Shown piece by piece: positions 3,910 through 61,567 of a stretch of 64,000 bases of DNA; the first letter of the stretch is position 1, and each line of letters starts with the position of its first letter. This DNA is from Octopus vulgaris. Its lineage: Eukaryota. The notes below the pieces were generated by a model. The model did not search any database. It was given only the letters and a program-made list of their open reading frames with translations, and had not been told where the DNA came from. The stretch covers positions 78,864,001-78,928,000 of the forward strand of contig OX597827.1 in assembly GCA_951406725.2 (NCBI GenBank). Direction: 5' to 3'. Position numbers and translations under genes: made by a program.

Positions 3910-4216
3910 TAAAGATTGTTTGCCAACACAACATGGCAGTCCTGGTTTAGGACGAATGTTGCTGTAATTTAAGCCCCAGGAGACATCCTGGAAATAACCT
4001 GAAAATCATGATACACAGATTTTGTTTTGAATAGTGGGGGTGCTAGAAAATATAAGGACACAGATCATGTCATATAGCCAGCTGGAGACGATGTCTCCTG
4101 GGGCTAAATTACAGCAACATTCATCCTAAACCAGGACTGCCATGTTATGTTGGCAAACAATCTTTACTCCAAAGTACTGTTGCTGAATATCTCTCATTGT
4201 GGGATTTAGAAATACT
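3910..4216 (+). mobile_element. 5'-truncated copy of the 353-bp HHR repeat with an inverted 5' duplication (fold-back)
   Basis: 3989-4216 matches the 45.4-46.0 kb unit from HHR stem II onward. 3910-3987 is the reverse complement of 4090-4166. Confidence 0.8.
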
Positions 4217-4600
4217 CTTTTACTCGTTTCAGTCGTTTGAATGTGGTCATGCTGGAGCACTGCTTTTAGTCGAATAAATCAACCCTAGGACTTATTTTTT
4301 GTAAGCCTAGTACTTATTCTATCGGTCTCTTTTTTGCCGAACTGCTAAGTGACAGGGACGTAAACACTCCAACATCGGTTGGCAAGAGGGGACAAACACA
4401 GACACAAACATCAAACACTTACATACATATATATATAACGGGCTTCTTTCAGTTTCCATCTACCAAATCCACTCGTAAGGCTTTGGTCAGCCAGAGGCTA
4501 TAGTAGAAGACATTTGCCCAAGGTGCCATGCAGTGGGACTGGACCCGGAACCATGTGGTTGGGAAGCAAGCTACTTACCACACAGCCACTCCTGTGCCCA
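4214..4600 (-). mobile_element. tRNA-derived CORE-type SINE family B
   Basis: Minus strand: gcacaggagtggctgtgtggtaag..ggcaccttgggcaa (CORE-like)..gactgaaacgagtaaaagag. Confidence 0.85.
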
Positions 4601-5846: not shown

Positions 5847-6878
5847 ACAAAGACATTCTCAAGATGGACTCCATATCTGTTGTGTTTGAGAGACACCGAA
5901 GTAATTATATTCGATAAAATATGGTCACTATGCGCCCATCAACTGCTCTACAACCTCCGTGTTTATTATTATCAAGCACCATCATTGACTTTACATAGTC
6001 TCTATTCTTCGTTACATTTATTCTTTTCTTTTTTTTAAGTAATTATTTAATTTCTGAAATTAGCAATTTGATTTCAAGATATTTACTGGTGGAAGACAAC
6101 AATAGAATATTGCCAGACTCGTGATTGTGATGTGCAAAGAAAAACCCATCAAATTTATTAATTACTCTTACATGATTGATGGATTAATTAATGTGGGATC
6201 AGCGAAAATCTTCCAGTTGTAAAATCAGGCTGCAAAAGGAGCAAAGAAAGTCTCTGCCTGAAGAATATTGAATAAAAAAAAAAGTGCTGAGAGACTTTCA
6301 CCAAACACACACACACATATACACACACACACTGTCTTTGGAAGAAAATAGTGAACCATCTCTGTTAAAACATCAATTTTCAAAAAAACTCAGATAGCTT
6401 GCATCTTTAATTCAGACATACAGCATACATCTATATGTATATATATCTATATTAAGTGACACAATATATATATTACATGTATATAAACATAAATATATAT
6501 TAAACTACATAAAGCACACACACACCCACATGTATACATATACACACATTCATTGAATAACTTAACTTGTATATGTATATGCACACACATACACATACAC
6601 GCTTGTGATTAATCTTGAATCAAACCTCATTTTATCAGTGTCCAACCATGACAGTCACTGTGAGCTCTGTTGCTATAACAGCAGGTACGATATCTCACAT
6701 GTAATATTTTCCTGATTAATCTCTACACCCACTGGATCTATACAATCATTTAATTTATCACACGCAGTTTATCCCCTTCAAACCAATTAATCTTTTACAT
6801 ATCCAGCCGATATTGACCACAAGACCAGAGTGCAAAATTTCTTGTATGGTTTAATTAAAACCAGGTTAAAGCTTGAAA

Positions 6879-7357
6879 ATGGACGGATACATGAGTGAGA
6901 AGACGATCCATTGCAATGTCCCCAGCCAACAGTTCCAGCCTCATTACGCTCTGCCCACGCACGGCCGGATGTCACATGCAGCTGAAAAGCAATTCTCTAT
7001 GGACATGTGCAGCAAGCAGTTTGCACAGAGCTGCTATTTCCAGGCTGCCGTCTCGCATGACCGACCAATGATTGTGCCATGCAGCAACATCTACGCCAAG
7101 CAATATGCATCCCAGAACTGTTATCTGCAAGCGGCTGCCGCTTCCCTGTCTTTGAACGACCAGCGTTGTCAACAGAGTCCCGTTCACATGACCACGCCGC
7201 ATCCTCCTCAGAGTCCCCTACAAGGGTCAGTCCTGAGGCAGGCCCACGACCAGCACATTTCAAACCAGAGTCACCACGGTCAGGTCCTGGAACCGCTCTC
7301 CATTGAAAAACCGTCTCTGCTGTCGCCAAGGAGCAGTTCCACCGAATCAGCTTGTCA

Positions 7358-7408
<51 letters not shown>

Positions 7409-9065
7409 GCAACGGCAACAACAACAACAACAGCAACAACAAACACAACCTCAACAACAACAACAACAACAACCAGAAGCTGCCAAACCGTTTGTGAGCC
7501 ACAGCCCCTCCCCCAAGACACTGCTTCCTCCCAACCACCTCCACCACCACCACCACCACCATCACCATCCCCACGGTAATCATAGTATTAGCTATCATCA
7601 TCATCATCACGTTCATAATAGCACCAACAGCAACAACAGTTGCTGTGGTGGTGGAGGTGGAGGTGGTGGTGGCGGTAGTAGCTGCAGAGCGAACAATGCC
7701 ACCCCAAACTGTATCACCCCCACTCCCACCCCTACACCTCCCGCCTGCAGCAGCACCCCCACCACCAACAGCAGCAACAGCAACAATATCAATAATAACA
7801 ATAATAATAATAATAACAATAACAGCAGCAGCACCGGCAGCAGTAACAACAGCAGCAAAATCAGCAACAACAACAACAATAGTACCAACAACAACAACAA
7901 CAACAGCAACAATGACATCAATAAAAGCATCAGCATCAACAACAACAACAACACCAACAACAGCGAGGAGAAGAGTGTAAAATGCGTGAAGCCTTTCCAT
8001 TGTACAGATTGTCCGAAGCAGTTTGCTCAGAGACACACTCTTCAGATTCACAAGAGATCCCACACAGGAGAGAAACCATTCCACTGTGACACTTGTTCCA
8101 AGCAGTTTGCTCGACGTGACAACTTGAAAATCCACCAACGTATTCACTCAGGTGAGAAACCGTTCACCTGTGAGTTTTGCCAAAAAAAGTTTGCCAGAAA
8201 CGACAAACTGCAAATCCACAGGCGTTCTCACACCGGCGAGAAACCATTTCCTTGTGATTTCTGCTGTAAACAGTTTGCGCAGAGGGACAAGCTACGAATG
8301 CATCGCAGAACACATACGGGGGAGAAGCCATATTCTTGTGATATATGTTCCAAATGTTTCGCCCAACGAAATACTCTTCAAACCCATAAACTCACTCATT
8401 CCGGAGAGAAACCTTTCCAGTGTCAACTTTGTCCGAAGCAATTTGCTCGTAAAGACCACCTGCAAATTCATACACGAACCCATACAGGGGAGAAACCGTT
8501 TCAATGCAGCGTTTGTCCCAAGAAGTTTGCACGAAGAGATAAACTGCAGATGCACCAAAGAACTCATTCTGGGGAAAAACCGTTTTGTTGTTCCCTTTGT
8601 CCTCGGCAATTTTCCCGCAAGGATAAGCTACAGATCCACCACAGGGTACATTCTGGTGAGAAACCATACGAGTGTGGAGTTTGCATGCGCCGATTTGCCC
8701 AGCGGGACCGCCTCCAGCTACACCAACGAACCCACACAGGGCTAAAACCATACCCGTGTGATCTGTGTATCCAGAGGTTTGCCCGCCGGGACACGTTACA
8801 AATCCACCGACGGACTCACACTGGAGAGAAACCGTTCCATTGTGAGGTGTGTGGTAAAGCTTTCTCCCAGACGGGCAAACTACAACGACACAGACGAACA
8901 CATAAGCAACTAAGAAAAAGCAGTACGAGTGGAGCTGTCGGTTCTACTTTAGGGGCTGGTTTAGGGGCTGGTTTAGGGGCTGGGGCTACAACTGCTGCTA
9001 ATTCATGTAAAAATGTTAAAGAGTACACCCCATTAAATACCATTTTATGGCAGACTATATATTAG
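6879..9065 (+). CDS. C2H2 zinc-finger protein ZF-A (11 tandem fingers; N-terminal polyQ/polyH/polyG/polyN low-complexity region)
   Basis: Open frame 6873-9065 with first ATG at 6879 (MDGYMSEK). Eleven C-x2-C-x12-H-x3-H fingers joined by TGEKP/SGEKP linkers (~7995-8905). Intronless CDS. Confidence 0.95.
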
Positions 9066-30232: not shown

Positions 30233-31549
30233 TCATTGCTGGCCAGCAGTATCAACATGAGGGGTGACCATCACTTCTGCCAATTGTTTTGTCGTGTAGA
30301 CAGGCGCGGTAGCAATATTTACTGGTGTGCTGATGGGGTACATTTGCAGGGTGGGGAATATCTGTGCTGTTGCAGCGTTCATTTGTATGGTCGTTGGGAA
30401 TATTTGGGCTGCGGTCGGTGACATCTGTATGGTGGTTGGAAAGATCTGAGCCATTGAATACATTTGTACAGTCTGGGCCCCGGTATTTGTCGTAGCAATG
30501 GCTGAATAGAGTTGTTGCTGTTGCTGCTGCTGCTGTTCATCTTGTTGTTGTTGTTGTTGTTGTTTTTGCTGAACCAGTCCAGCATTAATGGTGTTGTTGT
30601 GGCTGATAATATTGTTGTTGTCAACACTGGTCGTTGCTATTTGTTGTGGTTGGTTGAGATCAACTTGACAAATTGTAGGTTGCTGTAGGACCTCTGTGCT
30701 CACAGGTACTGGTAGCACCTCTGTACTCACGGGTAGCACCTCTGTACTCACGGGTACCGCAAGTTCTAACTGTGTCTCGGGTTCAACTTTCAACTGGGAA
30801 ACTTGAGGTACGCAACTCAGTTTCCGACGACCTTTATTTGGCTGGTTGTGCTTGACCAGGTGGTCATGGCGAGAAAAGGCAAATCCACAGATGGTACACT
30901 TGTAAGGGCGTTCTCCAGAGTGAATTCTCTTGTGGACCTTCAGATGATCCCGCCGGGACAGTGCCTTGCCGCAAATGTCACATTTAAAGAGCTTCTCCCC
31001 ATGGTGGCTGCTCATGTGTCGTACTAGATGGTCGTTGCGTGAGAAGGCGTAACCACACATCTCGCATCGGAAAGGCCTCTCCCCTGTCTGGGACCGTCTG
31101 CCAGTCTTCACCGATGGCTGGCCATAAAGAGGTTTCATGTGAGAGTGATGTTCGTACTGATGGTTGTGATGACCATGAATGTGATGATGATGATGGTTGT
31201 TGCTGTTGTTGTTACTGTTGTTGCTGTGGTGGTGATGATGGTGATGGTGATGATGATCGTTATTTTCAGAACCGGTGCTGAAATCAAAACAGTCATTGCC
31301 AAAAACTTTCTTTTCTTCCACCTCGACAAGCTCAACCACTGCCTGCTGTAATGTCTGCGGCTCAGAGCGTTTCTGCTTCATCGATGCACTGTTGATGTTG
31401 TTCTCGGGCTGCTGCAGCTGCGTGTGCACAACGGTCGATATCGGTGTTGTCGTTAATGATTCCATCGACGCAAAGCCCTTGTCACTGCAAATGTTGTTGT
31501 CCGACGTCGACTTCCCAACCATTTGCTGGGCTGTCAGGTTGTCCTCCAT
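30233..31549 (-). CDS. C2H2 zinc-finger protein ZF-B (3 fingers, third atypical; His-rich and Gln-rich regions)
   Basis: ORF 30233-31588 with first ATG at 31549 (MEDNLTAQQ). Fingers FRCEMC..RNDHLVRHMSSH, FKCDIC..RRDHLKVHKRIH and YKCTIC..RHDHLVKH (last His absent), with TGERP/SGERP linkers. Confidence 0.9.
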   Translation of the reverse strand: MEDNLTAQQMVGKSTSDNNICSDKGFASMESLTTTPISTVVHTQLQQPENNINSASMKQKRSEPQTLQQAVVELVEVEEKKVFGNDCFDFSTGSENNDHHHHHHHHHHSNNSNNNSNNHHHHHIHGHHNHQYEHHSHMKPLYGQPSVKTGRRSQTGERPFRCEMCGYAFSRNDHLVRHMSSHHGEKLFKCDICGKALSRRDHLKVHKRIHSGERPYKCTICGFAFSRHDHLVKHNQPNKGRRKLSCVPQVSQLKVEPETQLELAVPVSTEVLPVSTEVLPVPVSTEVLQQPTICQVDLNQPQQIATTSVDNNNIISHNNTINAGLVQQKQQQQQQQDEQQQQQQQQLYSAIATTNTGAQTVQMYSMAQIFPTTIQMSPTAAQIFPTTIQMNAATAQIFPTLQMYPISTPVNIATAPVYTTKQLAEVMVTPHVDTAGQQ

Positions 31550-31958
31550 TGCTATGGTAACCGCAGTGGAAAACACAAACAAAAACAAAATATGTCCTAA
31601 AAGGGCAGAAGTGTTATTAGAAACGTAATTTCCGTGTAGAGACTGTGGCAGTCTGCAAGTGCGGTGGGTGTGGTAGATTCTTCATTTCTATCATCGCATT
31701 TGTTTGGGTGACACAGCTGAGAGGAATAGTCAAGTGTAACGCAAGAGAGGCTTCATTTACAGTGATTAGGCTGGAGATCTCGTTATCGCATTCATCAATG
31801 GGAAATAGCTGAGTGGTAAGAGAAGGTGTTGTAGGATTTAGATTTGGTGAAAATGTATTTGAGGGAAATGTTATCAAGAGGAGAATTGCATCACACGAGT
31901 GACGGTTCCTTCTTGTGTTGCAGACAACTTTGTGTATCTCTCAAACAGCAGCAGTTAT

Positions 31959-43968: not shown

Positions 43969-44180
43969 TTAACCCATTAAGTCCCAGAGTACTTAAATTT
44001 CTGAATATTAATTCTAAATTTTTACAGATGATTGAAAATAGGTTAAAATGAAAAAACTAATTATTAAAACTCCTTTACATCAAGTAGAAATGGAAATACT
44101 CGGAGACAATGTGATGTAGCTTGATTAATGTTCTCATTAATATAGTGTCCTATTTATAGGACAATGGGACTTAATGGCTA
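43969..44180. mobile_element. piggyBac-like MITE
   Basis: TTAAcccattaagtccca .. tgggacttaatgg termini. Confidence 0.55.
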
Positions 44181-44764
44181 TCAAGCTTAGGGTCTGTGTA
44201 GAGAAGATGCAGTAATCTCTCGCCATATCATGGTTCACCTATCAAGCACTCAGTACTTTGCAGATTTTTCTGGATAATATGTGTAATTTTATATCATGGA
44301 ATCCTCAGTGTATCGTGGGTTTCTGCAGCCGATGGGTTTTTATATTTCTTTAGGTTTTAATTATTTTTGTGGGAGGCTTTGGAACGTAACACCTGCGATA
44401 GTTGAGGGATTACTGTATTGGACAACTGGTGTTACAAGTGGTCACTTTATAATTATTGTAGGTATATTTTGTGTTTATAGACAGAACACTTTATTCTACA
44501 TTCCCATCTGTTGGAGATTGGTACCAGATCATCTAACAATGCCACCTCTGCTACACTGAGGGATTGCTGAAGGGAGCATTTACCTTTTGCTCCCTTCGTG
44601 CTATGTGATCAAAGGTAAGCACCTCTCTTTAAAAGTCCTTCAGGTGGAGTCAAATCTGGTTGGTTGATCTATTAGAAATAACTGTCAAATCTCCCTTAAA
44701 TCACTCTCAACTAATGTAAAAAGTGAAGGAGGTGTAAATGCAAGATAATGTAGCTCTGGATATA

Positions 44765-45089
44765 TCTTTATATGATGATGATGATGATGATATAAAATTG
44801 AAGTTGTGTGTGTGAGACTCTGTCTCCTCCGATTTAGATTCCTAACTACTCCCACATTTTGAGGTGCAGTGTAACCAAAAGCAGGTATCTTATAGTCGTG
44901 ATTCATATCGAGCCCTTCTGGGTATTAGCACGCGTCTACGATGAGTCTACAATTCAAAAAAAAATTTACCATCATTTTTCCGCATTTTTAATGATTTTTG
45001 CTCGGTTTATATAAGGGAAGTAACTCTCTAAAAATGCTTATATAGTTATTTCCCTTATAAACCCGAGCAACGCCAGGCGATACTGCTAG
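44765..45089 (+). mobile_element. Non-autonomous Helitron
   Basis: Begins A|TC; ends with hairpin cccgagcaacgccaggc then CTAG|T; no TSD. Confidence 0.75.
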
Positions 45090-45442
45090 TTTTATCATAA
45101 ACAAGGATCTGCTTAATCAGGGTTGACTTGGAGCTAAACAACAGCAACAACTTTTCAGGACCCCTTACACATATTTAGTTATTTAAAGAAGAAAAAGAAT
45201 CAAATCGTTGAAGTTAACTACTTAGTGATGCCATCTGCATAAAACACCAATAGTTAAGTGAGAGTTAATAAATTCAATGTAGTGAACATTGAATACCTAG
45301 CATTAAATATCCAATTAACATCAAATAGTTAATTAGAAATATTTATGTAATGCATCATTAGAAAATCAGACAGAAATGTCACTTTGAAAACTATACATTT
45401 CGAACAGGAATTTGGCAGCGTCACCTCTTGCCAAACAATTAT

Positions 45443-45487
45443 TCTGTGCCGATGAAGGGAAATAACCCGGAAATCGCGATACATAGA
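45443..45487 (+). ncRNA. Type I hammerhead ribozyme (core variant CCGATGA)
   Basis: Same fold as 45796-45840, with perfect palindromic stem III TCGCGA and a U4-to-C change in the core. Confidence 0.65.
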
Positions 45488-45795
45488 TATTGTTTTGAGC
45501 TGAGTGGGTGTGCGAGATTCCCTTGTTCGAAAATATAAGGACACAGATCGGGTTGTATAGCCAGCTGGAGACTATATCTCCTGGGGTTAAATTACAGCAA
45601 CATTTGTCCTAAACCAGGACTGCCATGTTATGATGGCAAACACTCTTCACTCCAAAGTACTGTTGCTGAATATCTCTCATTGAGAGATTTACAAATACTA
45701 ATTTTCTATTTTATATATCAGTGACTAGTTGTCACTTTGAAAACTATATATTTGGAACAGGAATTTGGCAGCGTCACCTCTAGCTAAACAATTAT

Positions 45796-45840
45796 TCTGT
45801 GCTGATGAAGGGAAATAACCCGGAAATCGTGATACATAGA
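45796..45840 (+). ncRNA. Type I hammerhead ribozyme (intact core)
   Basis: tctgtg-CTGATGA-aGGG-aaataa-CCCg-GAAA-tcgtga-TA-cataga. Stem I tctgtg/cataga, stem II GGG/CCC, short near-palindromic stem III, AUA cleavage triplet. Confidence 0.8.
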
Positions 45841-46875
45841 TATTGTTTTGAGCTGAGTGGGGGTACTAGATTCCCTTGTTCAAAAATATAAGGACACAGA
45901 TCGGGTTGTATAGCCAACTGGAGACTGTCTCCTGGGGCTAAATTACAGCAACATTCGTCCTAAACCAGGACTGCCATGTTATGTTGGCAAACAATCTTTA
46001 CTCCAAAGTACTGTTGCTGAATATCTCTCGTTGTGAGATTTAAAAATAGTAATTTTCTATGTCTTACCATATTTGTTAAAAAATTTATGTTCTGAGTTCA
46101 AACCTTGCCAAGATCGACTTTTCCTTTCATCTTTGCAGGGTCAATAAAAATAAGGCATCAATCCAAAGTAGTAGATTAACAAGGGCTGTAAAAAAGCACC
46201 AGACCAGATGCTTTATGGGATTTGTCCCAGCCCTTGGTGTTCTGAGTTCAAATCCTTTCTGGTCTCACCTGAGTGGTAGATTTAACTCCACCACCTGACA
46301 CTTTGAGTGGCTGGAGTAGAATCCTCTCTGCTGCAAGCATTCAGTTCTGGTTTCTGATTTGAGGATACCTCATCCATCCCCCGTTCCTTTCCTCCCAAAA
46401 ATCTCAGGGACCCCCTTAGCCCTTCAGCATTTAAACCAGCTTTATAATAATATCCAGGGCTTCATTGCTACTGAAGGAGGAACCCGTCCCTGAACTCCTT
46501 CTGCCGCTGTCTCTCTCTCTGGCCAGTTGTGGCCATCTATTAAGCTCTCTCTAGGTCGTAGGTTAGATCATCTCATCACCTTGTCTTTGGTTGGCCTCTT
46601 GACCTTCTCCATTGAAAATTGGGAACCAGCCATGTCAGGCCTAGATATTCCTTGTTTTATGTTCAAACTGGCCAGATCCAGCCTCTCACACTTATCCTAC
46701 AAAGTCATTCTTAAAATAAACAGTCACATCATCAGAAAAGATAATGCATGGTAAATCCCAAACAATGTGAATAAGTAAGCATCCCATTTGACAGTCATCT
46801 GGATGCTAAAGTCAAGGGTCAAGGGTCAAGGGTACTGATTCCTCTCTTAATTAATAGCTAAAGTAAACAAGCAAA

Positions 46876-47288
46876 TAGGCACAGGAGTGGCTGTGTGGTA
46901 AGTAGCTTCTAACCAACCACATGGTTCCGGGTTCAGTCCCATTGCGTGGCACCTTGGGCAAGAGTCTTCTACTATAGCCTCGGGCCGACCAATGCCTTCT
47001 GAGTGGATTTGGTAGACGGAAACTGAAAGAAGCCTGTCATATATATGTATATATATATAAGTGTGTGTGTATATGTTTGTGTGTCTGTGTTTGTCCCCCT
47101 AGCATTGCTTGACAACCGATGCTGGTGTGTTTACGTCCCTGTCACTTAGCGGTTTGGCAAAAGAGACCGATAGAATAAATACTGGGCTTACAAAGAATAA
47201 GTCCTGGGGTCGATTTGCTCGACTAAAGGCGGTGCTCCAGCATGGCCGCAGTCAAATGACTGATACAAGTAAAAGAGTAAAGAGAGTA
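46876..47288 (+). mobile_element. SINE family B
   Basis: A box tggctgtgtgg, B box ggttcagtcc, CORE-like ggcaccttgggcaag, tail gtaaaagagtaaagag. Confidence 0.9.
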
Positions 47289-47959
47289 AACAAATGAAAC
47301 CGAAACTATGGAAACCCAGTAGTGACAAAACCTTTATGGGTTTGAGGCAGACTTTATATCAGACTAACACAAAGATCTTGCAAACTGAAAAGGGAAGCTC
47401 TATGTGATTACTAGGCCTACTAGAAATAGCAGCCAAATCTTCCTAAATTCTCATCCTACCATCTTATAAGAGGAAAGACTGTATAATATAGTTTTAGATG
47501 TATATTTCAAAATAAGATGTGATGGCCATGGTTGGAGTGTTTCTAAATTATAATAAAAGACTAAGATTACATTGATACAAAGGGATGTTTAAGTTTCATG
47601 GTAAATCATCGTTTGACACAAGTGTGAATGGAAACATCGATAAATATCTGATTGTCAACAATGAGAGAACGTGTGCTTGGTTGCACAGTCACTTGACTTG
47701 CTAAAAATAGCAACCAAACTTATCTCAAATCAAAACCTGTCATCTTTAAAAAAGCAGGTATTCTAATTTAGCTGTTTGAAAGAAAAAAAAAATGAATAGC
47801 AAGATAGGCATGGATGGAATGTCTTGGCTGGAGGTAACCTAGGACTAAACAACACCAACTGAAATTATAATTTCTGATCAAAGTCAAAACTGAGACAAAT
47901 GTTTAATCTTAAATGCCAAAAGTTTTATTCTTGGATTAAAATTATTACCATTAATAATA

Positions 47960-59145: not shown

Positions 59146-59776
59146 AAAGCTTGTTTCTTTTCACCCCAGAACTTAACGTTGGCAGTTTGTGGTGAAGAAC
59201 CGGAATCAAGTGAAACCGTGTTTCCTTTCATGATTTTAAGCCTCACCATTGATCCCTGTTGAAGAATACTGAACGTAACTGAATGCTTACTATAAGACTA
59301 TCATCATCTAGTTATGACTCCACTGAGGTCTTATTGTGAACACTGAGAACAGTCTTTCTACTTCTATAACTACTACTACTACTACTACTACTACTTGTAC
59401 ACCTTAGACTTTGTTGCTGTTGTTGTTGTCGTTGTTGTAGCCAAGTGGTGTTTTACTGTTGCTGTTCATTGATGTTTTAGTTTAAAGTCTTGGTTGAGAC
59501 TTCTGTAGAAACTCTCGGAGTTTTATGATTTATTTATAACTGAAAAAAGTTTCTTTTAGGGATCTGGAAATATTTAATGAGGTATAAAAGAACACAAACA
59601 TTATTTTGATTTTGAAAAATTGCAAGAAAGGGGCCCTTTTTTGTGTTAGTGTAAGAGAGTGTCAGGTTAAATTAGGGATACCTTTAAGTGATACCAATTG
59701 ACAGACCCCTAAATGATCTGTGTTTATTAGTGAAAAGTCTTATTGCTTAAGTAATCTGTATGACCCAGAACTACCA

Positions 59777-61567
59777 ATGGCAGCAGGGGTCAGAGCATCT
59801 GTGAAACTGCCACACACAGGGGAACTGGTGTTTCCTCCTGATGCCGATTCTAAGCATTTGCAATATTATCTTTCCTCGATTGCAAAACCAAGCAACACTA
59901 CCATGACTGGGCCCAGTAACAGCAATAAATTCCAGACAATTGATACCAATGATATCCTAACGGGCCAGAAGAAAGACTCGCCTGTAATGTTGACCCAGGG
60001 GAATAATGAGAACCATTCTTCAAAAATTGCCACACATCTTGGAGAAAGGTATTTTTGTGATTTTTGTGGCAAACACTTTGTTCAGAAATATATTTTAGAA
60101 ATGCATCGACGTACTCACACGGGTGAGAGGCCCTACCATTGCGACATGTGTTCAAAGCAGTTTGCTCGTAGAGACACTTTACAGATCCATAAGCGGTCTC
60201 ATTTAGGTCTGAAGCCCTTCCAGTGTGAAATCTGCCAGGAAGCCTTTGCTCAGAGACACTACTTGATTATACACCGGAGGAAACACACTGGCGAAAGACC
60301 CTTTGAATGTGATTTCTGCTTGCAAAGATTTGCTCGCAGGGACACATTACAGATTCACCAATTGAGACACAGTGGAGAGAAACCGTTTGAATGTGAAGTT
60401 TGCTTCAAGAAATTTGCGCAGAAATATTACTTACGGATCCATCGAAGACTTCATAACAAAACCGAATCTGAGGGTCAGTTGTACAAATGTAGTTTATGTT
60501 CCAGTAGCTTTGCTAACAAAGCTCACCTACAGCTCCATCAGCGAACCCACTTAGTGCCATATCTCTACAAATGCGATATTTGCCCCAAAAGTTTTACACA
60601 GAAGCAATATCTTCAGTCCCATAAAAGGGTCCATATGGCTGTTGCAAGACTTTACCAATGTGATATTTGCCAGGAACCTTTTACAAACAAGGATTACCTA
60701 AGAATCCACAAGCGTTCTCACAGTGGGGAAAAACCCTATCAGTGTGACATTTGTATCCAGAAGTTTGCACGTAAAGATACTTTGGTAATCCATCGCCGGA
60801 CACATACCGGGGAGAAACCTTTCCACTGTGATGTCTGTGGTAAGGACTTTGCTAAGCGAGATAAACTTCAAGTACACCGTGGGACACATGTACGGCAAAA
60901 GAAATATAACTGTGACGTTTGCGATAAAATGTTCACACGCCGTGATACTCTCGAGATTCATAAGCGTGTCCATACAGGAGAGAAGCCATTCCAGTGTCAG
61001 ATTTGTTTAAAGCAGTTTTCACAAAAAGACAAGCTTCAAATTCATACTCGAATTCATACAGGTGTTAAACCATTTCATTGTGATGCATGCCCGAAATCTT
61101 TTTTTCAAAGAAATGCTCTTGAGAAACACAAAAGAACCCATACAGGTGAGAAACCCTACCAGTGTGCCATGTGCCTGAAGCAGTTTGCCCATCGAGATTA
61201 TTTAAAAATACACCAGCGAATGCACACGGGGGAGAAGAGGTTTCACTGCGAAATCTGCTTGAAAAAATTTGCTCGCAAAGACACCCTGCAAGTTCATCAG
61301 AGGACCCACACGGGGGAGAAGCCGTTTCAGTGTGAAATCTGTTACAAAACATTTGCACAGCGAAATAAACTTCAGATTCACAGTCGCACTCATTCCGGAG
61401 AGAAACCCTACGCGTGTGAGGTTTGCTTGCAGAGATTCTCCCGGCAGGATTCCCTTCGACGTCACTCCAAAACGCACAAAGAAAATCAGAACAACAACAC
61501 TGCTATCTCGTTGTCGATGAAACATATTGATCACCTTCCGGCGGTCACCAAGTATTTATGTCTGTAA
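59777..61567 (+). CDS. C2H2 zinc-finger protein ZF-C (17 fingers)
   Basis: ORF 59720-61567 with first ATG at 59777 in good context (ccaATGG; MAAGVRAS). Seventeen C2H2 fingers, mostly with TGEKP-type linkers. Confidence 0.95.
   Translation: MAAGVRASVKLPHTGELVFPPDADSKHLQYYLSSIAKPSNTTMTGPSNSNKFQTIDTNDILTGQKKDSPVMLTQGNNENHSSKIATHLGERYFCDFCGKHFVQKYILEMHRRTHTGERPYHCDMCSKQFARRDTLQIHKRSHLGLKPFQCEICQEAFAQRHYLIIHRRKHTGERPFECDFCLQRFARRDTLQIHQLRHSGEKPFECEVCFKKFAQKYYLRIHRRLHNKTESEGQLYKCSLCSSSFANKAHLQLHQRTHLVPYLYKCDICPKSFTQKQYLQSHKRVHMAVARLYQCDICQEPFTNKDYLRIHKRSHSGEKPYQCDICIQKFARKDTLVIHRRTHTGEKPFHCDVCGKDFAKRDKLQVHRGTHVRQKKYNCDVCDKMFTRRDTLEIHKRVHTGEKPFQCQICLKQFSQKDKLQIHTRIHTGVKPFHCDACPKSFFQRNALEKHKRTHTGEKPYQCAMCLKQFAHRDYLKIHQRMHTGEKRFHCEICLKKFARKDTLQVHQRTHTGEKPFQCEICYKTFAQRNKLQIHSRTHSGEKPYACEVCLQRFSRQDSLRRHSKTHKENQNNNTAISLSMKHIDHLPAVTKYLCL

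Follow-up and report, generated by a model that had tools for sequence, protein, structure and literature searches.

Non-LTR retrozymes of metazoans are the closest described systems. Those of coral, mussel (350-390 bp) and axolotl (331/353 bp) have non-coding units of about 350 bp with about 40% GC, a type I hammerhead with a short palindromic helix III, and a highly self-paired predicted circle (PMC7229834). As a class, such elements are multicopy non-coding units of 150-400 bp and low GC, with no LTR, PBS, or PPT. They are present in hundreds to thousands of copies with target duplications of more than 4 bp, are arranged in tandem from dimers to 62-mers, and are expressed as circles (PMC7229834). 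The newt and axolotl hammerheads cleave only as dimers, and helix II of axolotl Amex2 is closed by U·U (PMC7229834). The enzyme that mobilises animal retrozymes is treated as a hypothesis (PMC7229834, PMC7761336). Vertebrate retrozymes co-occur with endonuclease-bearing (EN+) Penelope-like elements (PLEs), and mobilisation by PLEs has been proposed from this co-occurrence and from pLTR homology, with no mollusc in the sampling given in the main text (bioRxiv 10.64898/2026.07.22.740005).

PLEs carry hammerheads in their pLTRs, and they insert into AT-rich targets with an inverted 5'-truncated arm and a one-sided tail (PMC4209133; PMC11167929; 10.1101/2021.04.23.441226). The tail, 30-40 nt in PLEs, was traced to two internal reverse transcription (RT) start sites, and the tail was called unique to PLEs (PMC11167929). 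The pattern of an inverted truncated arm plus a one-sided tail was described separately (10.1101/2021.04.23.441226). The hammerhead of Schistosoma PLEs has a U3-A8 core variant (PMC4209133). An anole PLE could work from uncleaved RNA in vitro, with its hammerhead dispensable (PMC11167929). The comparison also drew on PMC6155905, PMC6765202, and PMC10886601. No cephalopod retrozyme was found in the literature, of which the supplements of PMC7229834 and bioRxiv 10.64898/2026.07.22.740005, outside the search, may list some; for the giant squid genome, 235 Rfam Hammerhead_1 matches were counted and not described (PMC6962438). The 'tail' and 'inverted' anatomy is absent from the main texts of PMC7229834 and bioRxiv 10.64898/2026.07.22.740005.

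In this study, we analysed 64,000 nucleotides of Octopus vulgaris DNA (assembly GCA_951406725.2, contig OX597827.1, positions 78,864,001 to 78,928,000, forward strand), hereafter the window. We read the insertion at 45377-46060 as a 5'-truncated near-dimer of a dispersed hammerhead repeat, inserted by a PLE RT-endonuclease from a small, probably circular RNA, and we give this reading a probability of about 0.8. The repeat is called family A. The features are as follows.

45377..46060, + strand: whole insertion; a 5'-truncated family A copy of about 1.94 units that stops at the long 3' end (unit ~332)
45377..45729, + strand: unit 1, 353 bp
45730..46060, + strand: unit 2, 331 bp
45443..45487, + strand: type I hammerhead 1, with U4C, A10.1·G11.1, and AUA; predicted cut after 45481
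45796..45840, + strand: type I hammerhead 2, with a canonical core and A10.1·G11.1; predicted cut after 45834
45482..45834, + strand: predicted 353-nt monomer between the cut sites
45391..45538, + strand: predicted long rod that has the hammerhead at its apex (limits approximate); second copy at ~45744-45891
46004..46059, + strand: 'tail' between the two 3' end sites (unit ~277 and ~332), putative internal RT starts (PMC11167929)
3912..4224, both strands: second family A insertion, inverted, with a minus arm at 3912-3986 (unit 198-271) and a plus arm at 3990-4224 (unit 82-331)

The earlier note on this DNA had described two head-to-tail units, and the description holds: the units are 93% identical across 333 nt, with the final ~20 nt missing from unit 2. 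The motif positions that it gave are also correct: 45443 and 45796 mark the 5' strand of helix I, whose 3' strand is at 45482 and 45835. So is its arithmetic for a 353-nt monomer. Two of the internal hairpins that it listed, tgccat..atggca and atctctcattgagagat, are perfect in unit 1 only; unit 2 has ttggca and gtgagat. Each hammerhead comprises a 6-bp helix I, a helix II of 3 bp capped by a 6-nt loop, a palindromic helix III of 8 nt, and an AUA triplet, and the core is at 45449 in unit 1 and at 45802 in unit 2. A relaxed type I descriptor, scanned over both strands of the window, matched these two sites only, and gave a mean of 0.0 matches over 100 shuffled windows. The Rfam scan returned no hammerhead family at E ≤ 1 in 44000-47500 and none at E ≤ 10 in 45760-45880, and TRF did not list the unit pair as an array.

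Positions 10.1 and 11.1, at the base of helix II, form an A·G mismatch in both units. Natural U·U exceptions at these positions exist (PMC3088659). Core position 4 is C in unit 1 (U4C, 45450), and unit 2 has the canonical core letters (C3 U4 G5 A6 N7 G8 A9 ... G12 A13 A14 A15.1, U16.1 H17). U4C was reported to lower hammerhead activity considerably in vitro, yet it allowed viroid infectivity (PMC3088659); AUA is a natural but slower cleavage triplet (PMC1636495). No ORF of at least 120 aa lies over the insertion, and the GC content of the unit is 0.38-0.41. At non-CpG sites, unit 1 differs from the family A majority by 5.5% and unit 2 by 2.0%. The dimer has the long 3' end only, without an inverted arm and without a clear target duplication.

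The unit is, by its sequence features, a metazoan non-LTR retrozyme except for the 10.1-11.1 pair. It shares with the described retrozymes the unit size, GC content, hammerhead type, palindromic helix III, predicted self-paired circle, target duplications and copy number (PMC7229834), and, with those of vertebrates, co-occurrence with EN+ PLEs (bioRxiv 10.64898/2026.07.22.740005). Three differences stand against these: family A consists mostly of truncated inverted pairs in which two-hammerhead copies are rare, rather than of tandems; its helix II is closed by A·G, where that of axolotl Amex2 has U·U; and its circle is predicted, whereas circles of the described retrozymes are expressed (PMC7229834). 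The connection to PLEs is also of another kind, an insertion scar here, with no pLTR homology among the PLE loci searched, and co-occurrence plus pLTR homology in vertebrates (bioRxiv 10.64898/2026.07.22.740005). Compared with PLEs, family A shares the inverted truncated arm, one-sided tail, and AT-rich targets but has no ORF, its tail is ~55 nt long, and its hammerhead, unlike the minimal PLE form, combines a short helix II with a real helix III (PMC4209133; PMC11167929; 10.1101/2021.04.23.441226).

Elsewhere in the window, three long reading frames of C2H2 zinc-finger type with low-complexity N-terminal parts lie at 6870-9065, 30233-31681, and 59717-61567, the insertion sitting between the second and the third. 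The N-terminal regions of the two frames searched returned no homologs. A long inverted repeat at 44998-45070, 300 bp upstream of the insertion, is apparently unrelated.

Exact genome matches numbered 352 for a hammerhead 25-mer and 1,337 for a 3' 28-mer, with 0 for the reversed controls. Estimated at ~4% divergence, these suggest ~1,000 hammerhead-bearing arms and ~4,000 arms in total for family A; a first look gave 3,122 candidates for the unit in the genome, some of which may belong to sister families. In a sample biased to good matches, 65 long copies at 53 loci differ from the majority by 3.9% at non-CpG sites. Conservation among copies is 0.957 in the core and 0.951 in the rest of the unit; with the core preserved no better than other positions, the copies decay neutrally. 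As expected for such copies, covariation within family A did not rise above shuffles. The core and all three helices are intact in 15 of 28 aligned copies. The A at 10.1 is opposite G or A in all 28, and the mismatch is thus ancestral in the family. A genome search with RF00163 gave 59 matches, and none of the 20 loci fetched resembles the unit; since Rfam misses them, hammerhead families with a 10.1·11.1 mismatch are likely under-counted. The fetched loci (L099-L118) include at least three other RF00163-matched hammerhead families unrelated to the unit, some with a long helix II insertion.

The family is dispersed, ORF-less, circularly permuted, and multicopy, and it does not consist of tandem arrays. 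Among 29 insertions selected with the hammerhead probe, 24 are inverted pairs, 14 extend across the junction between units, and a single one carries two hammerheads on the same strand, which makes the tandem arrangement an exception. Most family A insertions are 5'-truncated inverted pairs.

Insertion ends were analysed in a 3'-selected set of 150 locus records, in which 240 distinct arms were left once those below 84% identity or shorter than 40 bp had been removed. The 3' ends lie at unit 262-290 in 102 arms, at 326-346 in 117, and elsewhere in 21; 219 of the 240 arms thus finish at one of two fixed sites ~55 nt apart. Inverted arms were found in 102 of 133 insertion records, and 85 of these 102 pair one short with one long end. 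Direct repeats in the flanks have a mean length of 7.5 nt, compared with 5.1 nt for cross-locus controls, and many insertions have target duplications of 8-17 bp. The inverted 5'-truncated arm, the one-sided tail, and the target duplication of PLE-type insertion are therefore present family-wide. This signature is the most informative feature of the family, and the earlier note had overlooked it.

Of the 219 terminal family A arms, 37 cross the unit junction into the previous unit. The cut site is read through by 74 family A arms and 62 family C arms (family C is a sister family, described below), and a second cut site is passed by 4 of the 219 and by 6 family C arms. Read-through of this kind means that reverse transcription copied circles or uncut multimers rather than linear monomers already cut. 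The 5' stops of 14 family A arms lie at 102-110 against 33 in the 52 nt flank (p = 0.006), with a peak at 105-106; discovery gave p = 0.053, over a range of positions chosen after seeing the data, and replication gave p = 0.043. The corresponding 5'-end peak is absent from family C (0 in the tested range, 10 in the flanks); for want of this replication, the cut-site footprint is a lead only. Family A 5' truncations also cluster at unit 137-160 (34 stops in 137-152), where RT would enter the long rod, and a similar cluster lies at 164-169 in family C.

In the life cycle that we propose, a multi-unit copy would be transcribed, and two hammerheads would pair via the palindromic helix III and then cut. 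The 353-nt monomer would be ligated into a rod-like circle with the core folded shut. A PLE protein would nick AT-rich DNA on both strands and start cDNA at unit ~277 and ~332, ~55 nt apart; of this step, we observe the pair of end classes, the inverted arms, and the target duplications, and we infer the enzyme. Copying would pass the cut site and round the unit junction, with occasional dimers such as 45377-46060 as products. Family A is now decaying, and the window locus is probably an inert fossil copy.

Predicted folding is compatible with this cycle. The circular fold of the window monomer has an energy of -94.6 kcal/mol (z = -4.1 against 40 shuffles), and those of the majority monomers have z = -6.8 in family A and -8.1 in family B. 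The hammerhead core is paired shut in the minimum-energy fold, and opening both monomeric hammerheads costs +15.2 kcal/mol. Two helix III palindromes pair as a duplex at -8.2 kcal/mol. In the folding model, these energetics fit dimer-only cleavage as in newt and axolotl.

Related families were found by patterns and DNA queries only. They are located as follows.

Family C: L183-L212, L366-L395, L483-L535; unit L184:1482-1841
Other ORF-less hammerhead families with inverted insertions: B, L149-L178; E, L233-L252; D, L253-L272; G, L213-L232; H, L273-L302

Family B is 8.4% diverged and differs from family A at 50 of 357 columns. With the rod structure taken from A, the A-B comparison gives 4 compensatory changes, 10 one-sided changes, and 6 broken pairs, where 14.8 breaks would be expected (P = 0.0004). 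Helix II of family B is for the most part disrupted by A·A and A·C; family B spread nonetheless. Family C is the youngest, with 1.3% divergence, a unit of ~360 bp, 805 exact matches to a 23-mer, and a location mostly in (TA)n. U3 and A8 replace C3 and G8 in all 33-35 of its copies that cover the site, a core also described for Schistosoma PLEs (PMC4209133). In the family C hammerhead, helix II is 4 bp long, the triplet is GUC, and the palindrome is unlike that of family A. Families D and E (related to A), G, and H keep the hammerhead fold with other sequences; for G and H, homology to A was detected in the hammerhead only. In 20-30 loci of each of D, E, G, and H, no joined ORF was found. The base of helix II is A·A in B, G-C in E, C·A in D, and G-C in G and H; positions 10.1-11.1 are A-U, C·A, or G-C in related families, and family A lacks such a closing pair. 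A loop-2 pattern excluding family A gave 219 matches against 13 in the control, and a family with helix II closed by U·U appears among these matches.

Across families, covariation consists of the U3-A8 swap, new palindromes, and new helix I and II sequences. Core and palindromic helix III covary between families and not within family A. Because core, palindrome, and rod were kept with compensatory changes across families, selection appears to have acted on the ribozyme during spread. Judged from these comparisons, the data support family A and its sisters as a real ribozyme lineage with predicted cleavage, and family C is the best candidate for current circles.

The same element and the same PLE enzyme could also have worked without circles, from an uncleaved partial-tandem template, with the family A hammerhead a weak or dead relic. 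Circles are not needed to explain the insertions, since the anole PLE used unprocessed RNA (PMC11167929), and most arms traverse the cut site. The A·G at 10.1·11.1, the degenerate helix II of family B, the neutral decay, the 1/9 cleavage reported for Xenopus dimers (bioRxiv 10.64898/2026.07.22.740005), and the energy by which both monomeric hammerheads lie above the minimum point in the same direction. However, the ribozyme features were kept across families, multi-unit arms recur though most copies are shorter than one unit, and the family A stops at 102-110 are those that a cut 5' end would give. We consider a cycle without circles rather unlikely, and insertion from a probably circular RNA remains our reading.

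Whether the dimer arose by RT past one unit can be judged from rare variants. In family A, arms of one insertion have rare variants in common ~7-fold more often than arms of different loci; sharing per 100 bp is 0.72 and 0.64 against 0.09 in family A, and 0.30 and 0.23 against 0.008 in family C. From these counts, the sharing is consistent with one template per insertion, and part of it may stem from local duplication or conversion. Had a monomer insertion been duplicated locally as DNA, this would account for the three rare variants common to the window units and for the inactivating changes common to both units in some arrays (L024, L009). Such a duplication is nevertheless an improbable origin for the window dimer, which is 1.94 units long, ends exactly at the family 3' site, and has no duplicated flank; moreover, the rate of rare-variant sharing is similar in inverted arms (0.64 vs. 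0.72), and these cannot have arisen by tandem duplication.

Expression was assessed in two raw RNA-seq runs (~6% read) and two contig sets, all of uncertain species and library type. Family reads run in both directions about equally, and those at least 99% like the locus number 22 of 4,167 and 19 of 3,678. Depth in the left flank (45200-45343) is zero in all four runs. No read ends pile up at the cut sites, the sole pile-up being 8 molecules at 45407, and reads that span the unit junction could come equally from genomic tandems or from circles. In two runs, depth peaks at 45926-46002 with shared loose ends on both sides, which suggests one well-expressed diverged copy elsewhere.

In the strong form of the reading in the earlier note, the window locus would now be transcribed, cleaved at both AUA sites, and yield an abundant 353-nt circle. 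The locus is among the few with two same-strand hammerheads (1/29), helices I-III pair in both units, the palindromes can form the duplex given above, and AUA is natural, if slower (PMC1636495). We still regard present activity as very unlikely: unit 1 has U4C, which lowers activity in vitro (PMC3088659), in a core on which one of the two cuts depends, and the RNA data show neither left-flank depth nor ends at the cut sites, in runs that may be of other species and libraries that may lose circles. With the neutral decay of the family, the claim of abundant circles from this locus is unsupported.

The genome contains PLEs whose RT and GIY-YIG ORFs are intact (148 matches of 150 scored). No such ORF is joined to the unit among the family A loci searched. 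In 203 overlapping locus records of family A (53+63+87), PLE ORF pieces flank 4 distinct insertions, and none of these pieces enters the arm's 5' side in the same orientation. BLAST and profile comparison of the unit with 30 GIY-YIG loci and 8 extended PLE loci returned separate retrozyme insertions only. It is highly improbable that the unit is no more than a pLTR, surviving as truncated copies of an ORF-bearing PLE, as the earlier note had allowed, for arms beyond the unit start enter the previous unit and the family profile found no pLTR among the PLE loci searched, even though the insertion anatomy is of PLE type, Xenopus retrozymes resemble pLTRs (bioRxiv 10.64898/2026.07.22.740005), and the set examined is part of the family copies and part of the PLE families. 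On present sequence evidence, family A was likely mobilised by PLEs and is not a pLTR remnant.

A PLE with the family A helix III was predicted, but this did not hold: the pattern gave 53 matches against 0 in the control, and the 30 fetched loci were mostly family H, which is ORF-less and circularly permuted. At L095:2330-5470, a 5'-truncated PLE has an inverted arm and a hammerhead with helix II closed by U·U. Another PLE is young.

L091:430-5672: young PLE with 456-bp pLTRs that are 99% identical and an intact 781-aa RT + GIY-YIG frame

The 781-aa frame is open in many copies. An upstream overlapping frame of 359-479 aa precedes it, and a U3-A8 hammerhead lies near the 3' end. For a PLE that has an endonuclease, such an additional upstream ORF seems unusual. 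The pLTR hammerhead has a U3-A8 core and a helix III palindrome identical to those of family C, and both elements are located in (TA)n. The core swap is the stronger link between them, because the palindrome is also found in other families.

In its two-site tail, this ORF-less hammerhead repeat bears a mechanistic fingerprint that points to PLEs. More tentatively, at somewhat less than an even chance, the octopus genome may bear the trace of a succession of ORF-less hammerhead circles of ~330-360 nt, reverse-transcribed by PLE proteins from two internal starts, of which an active pair of family C and the young PLE may persist. If so, this would be the first direct genomic fingerprint of animal retrozymes as PLE parasites, and at least five related families, ~1% to >8% diverged, would record the retrozyme life cycle in their insertion scars. 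Molluscan retrozymes are already known; the value of the finding lies in the PLE scar and in the pairing of family C with a PLE more than in the window locus. An in vitro assay already exists (PMC11167929) for which young family C and the young PLE make a concrete pair, and the pair, if active, could be reconstituted in vitro.
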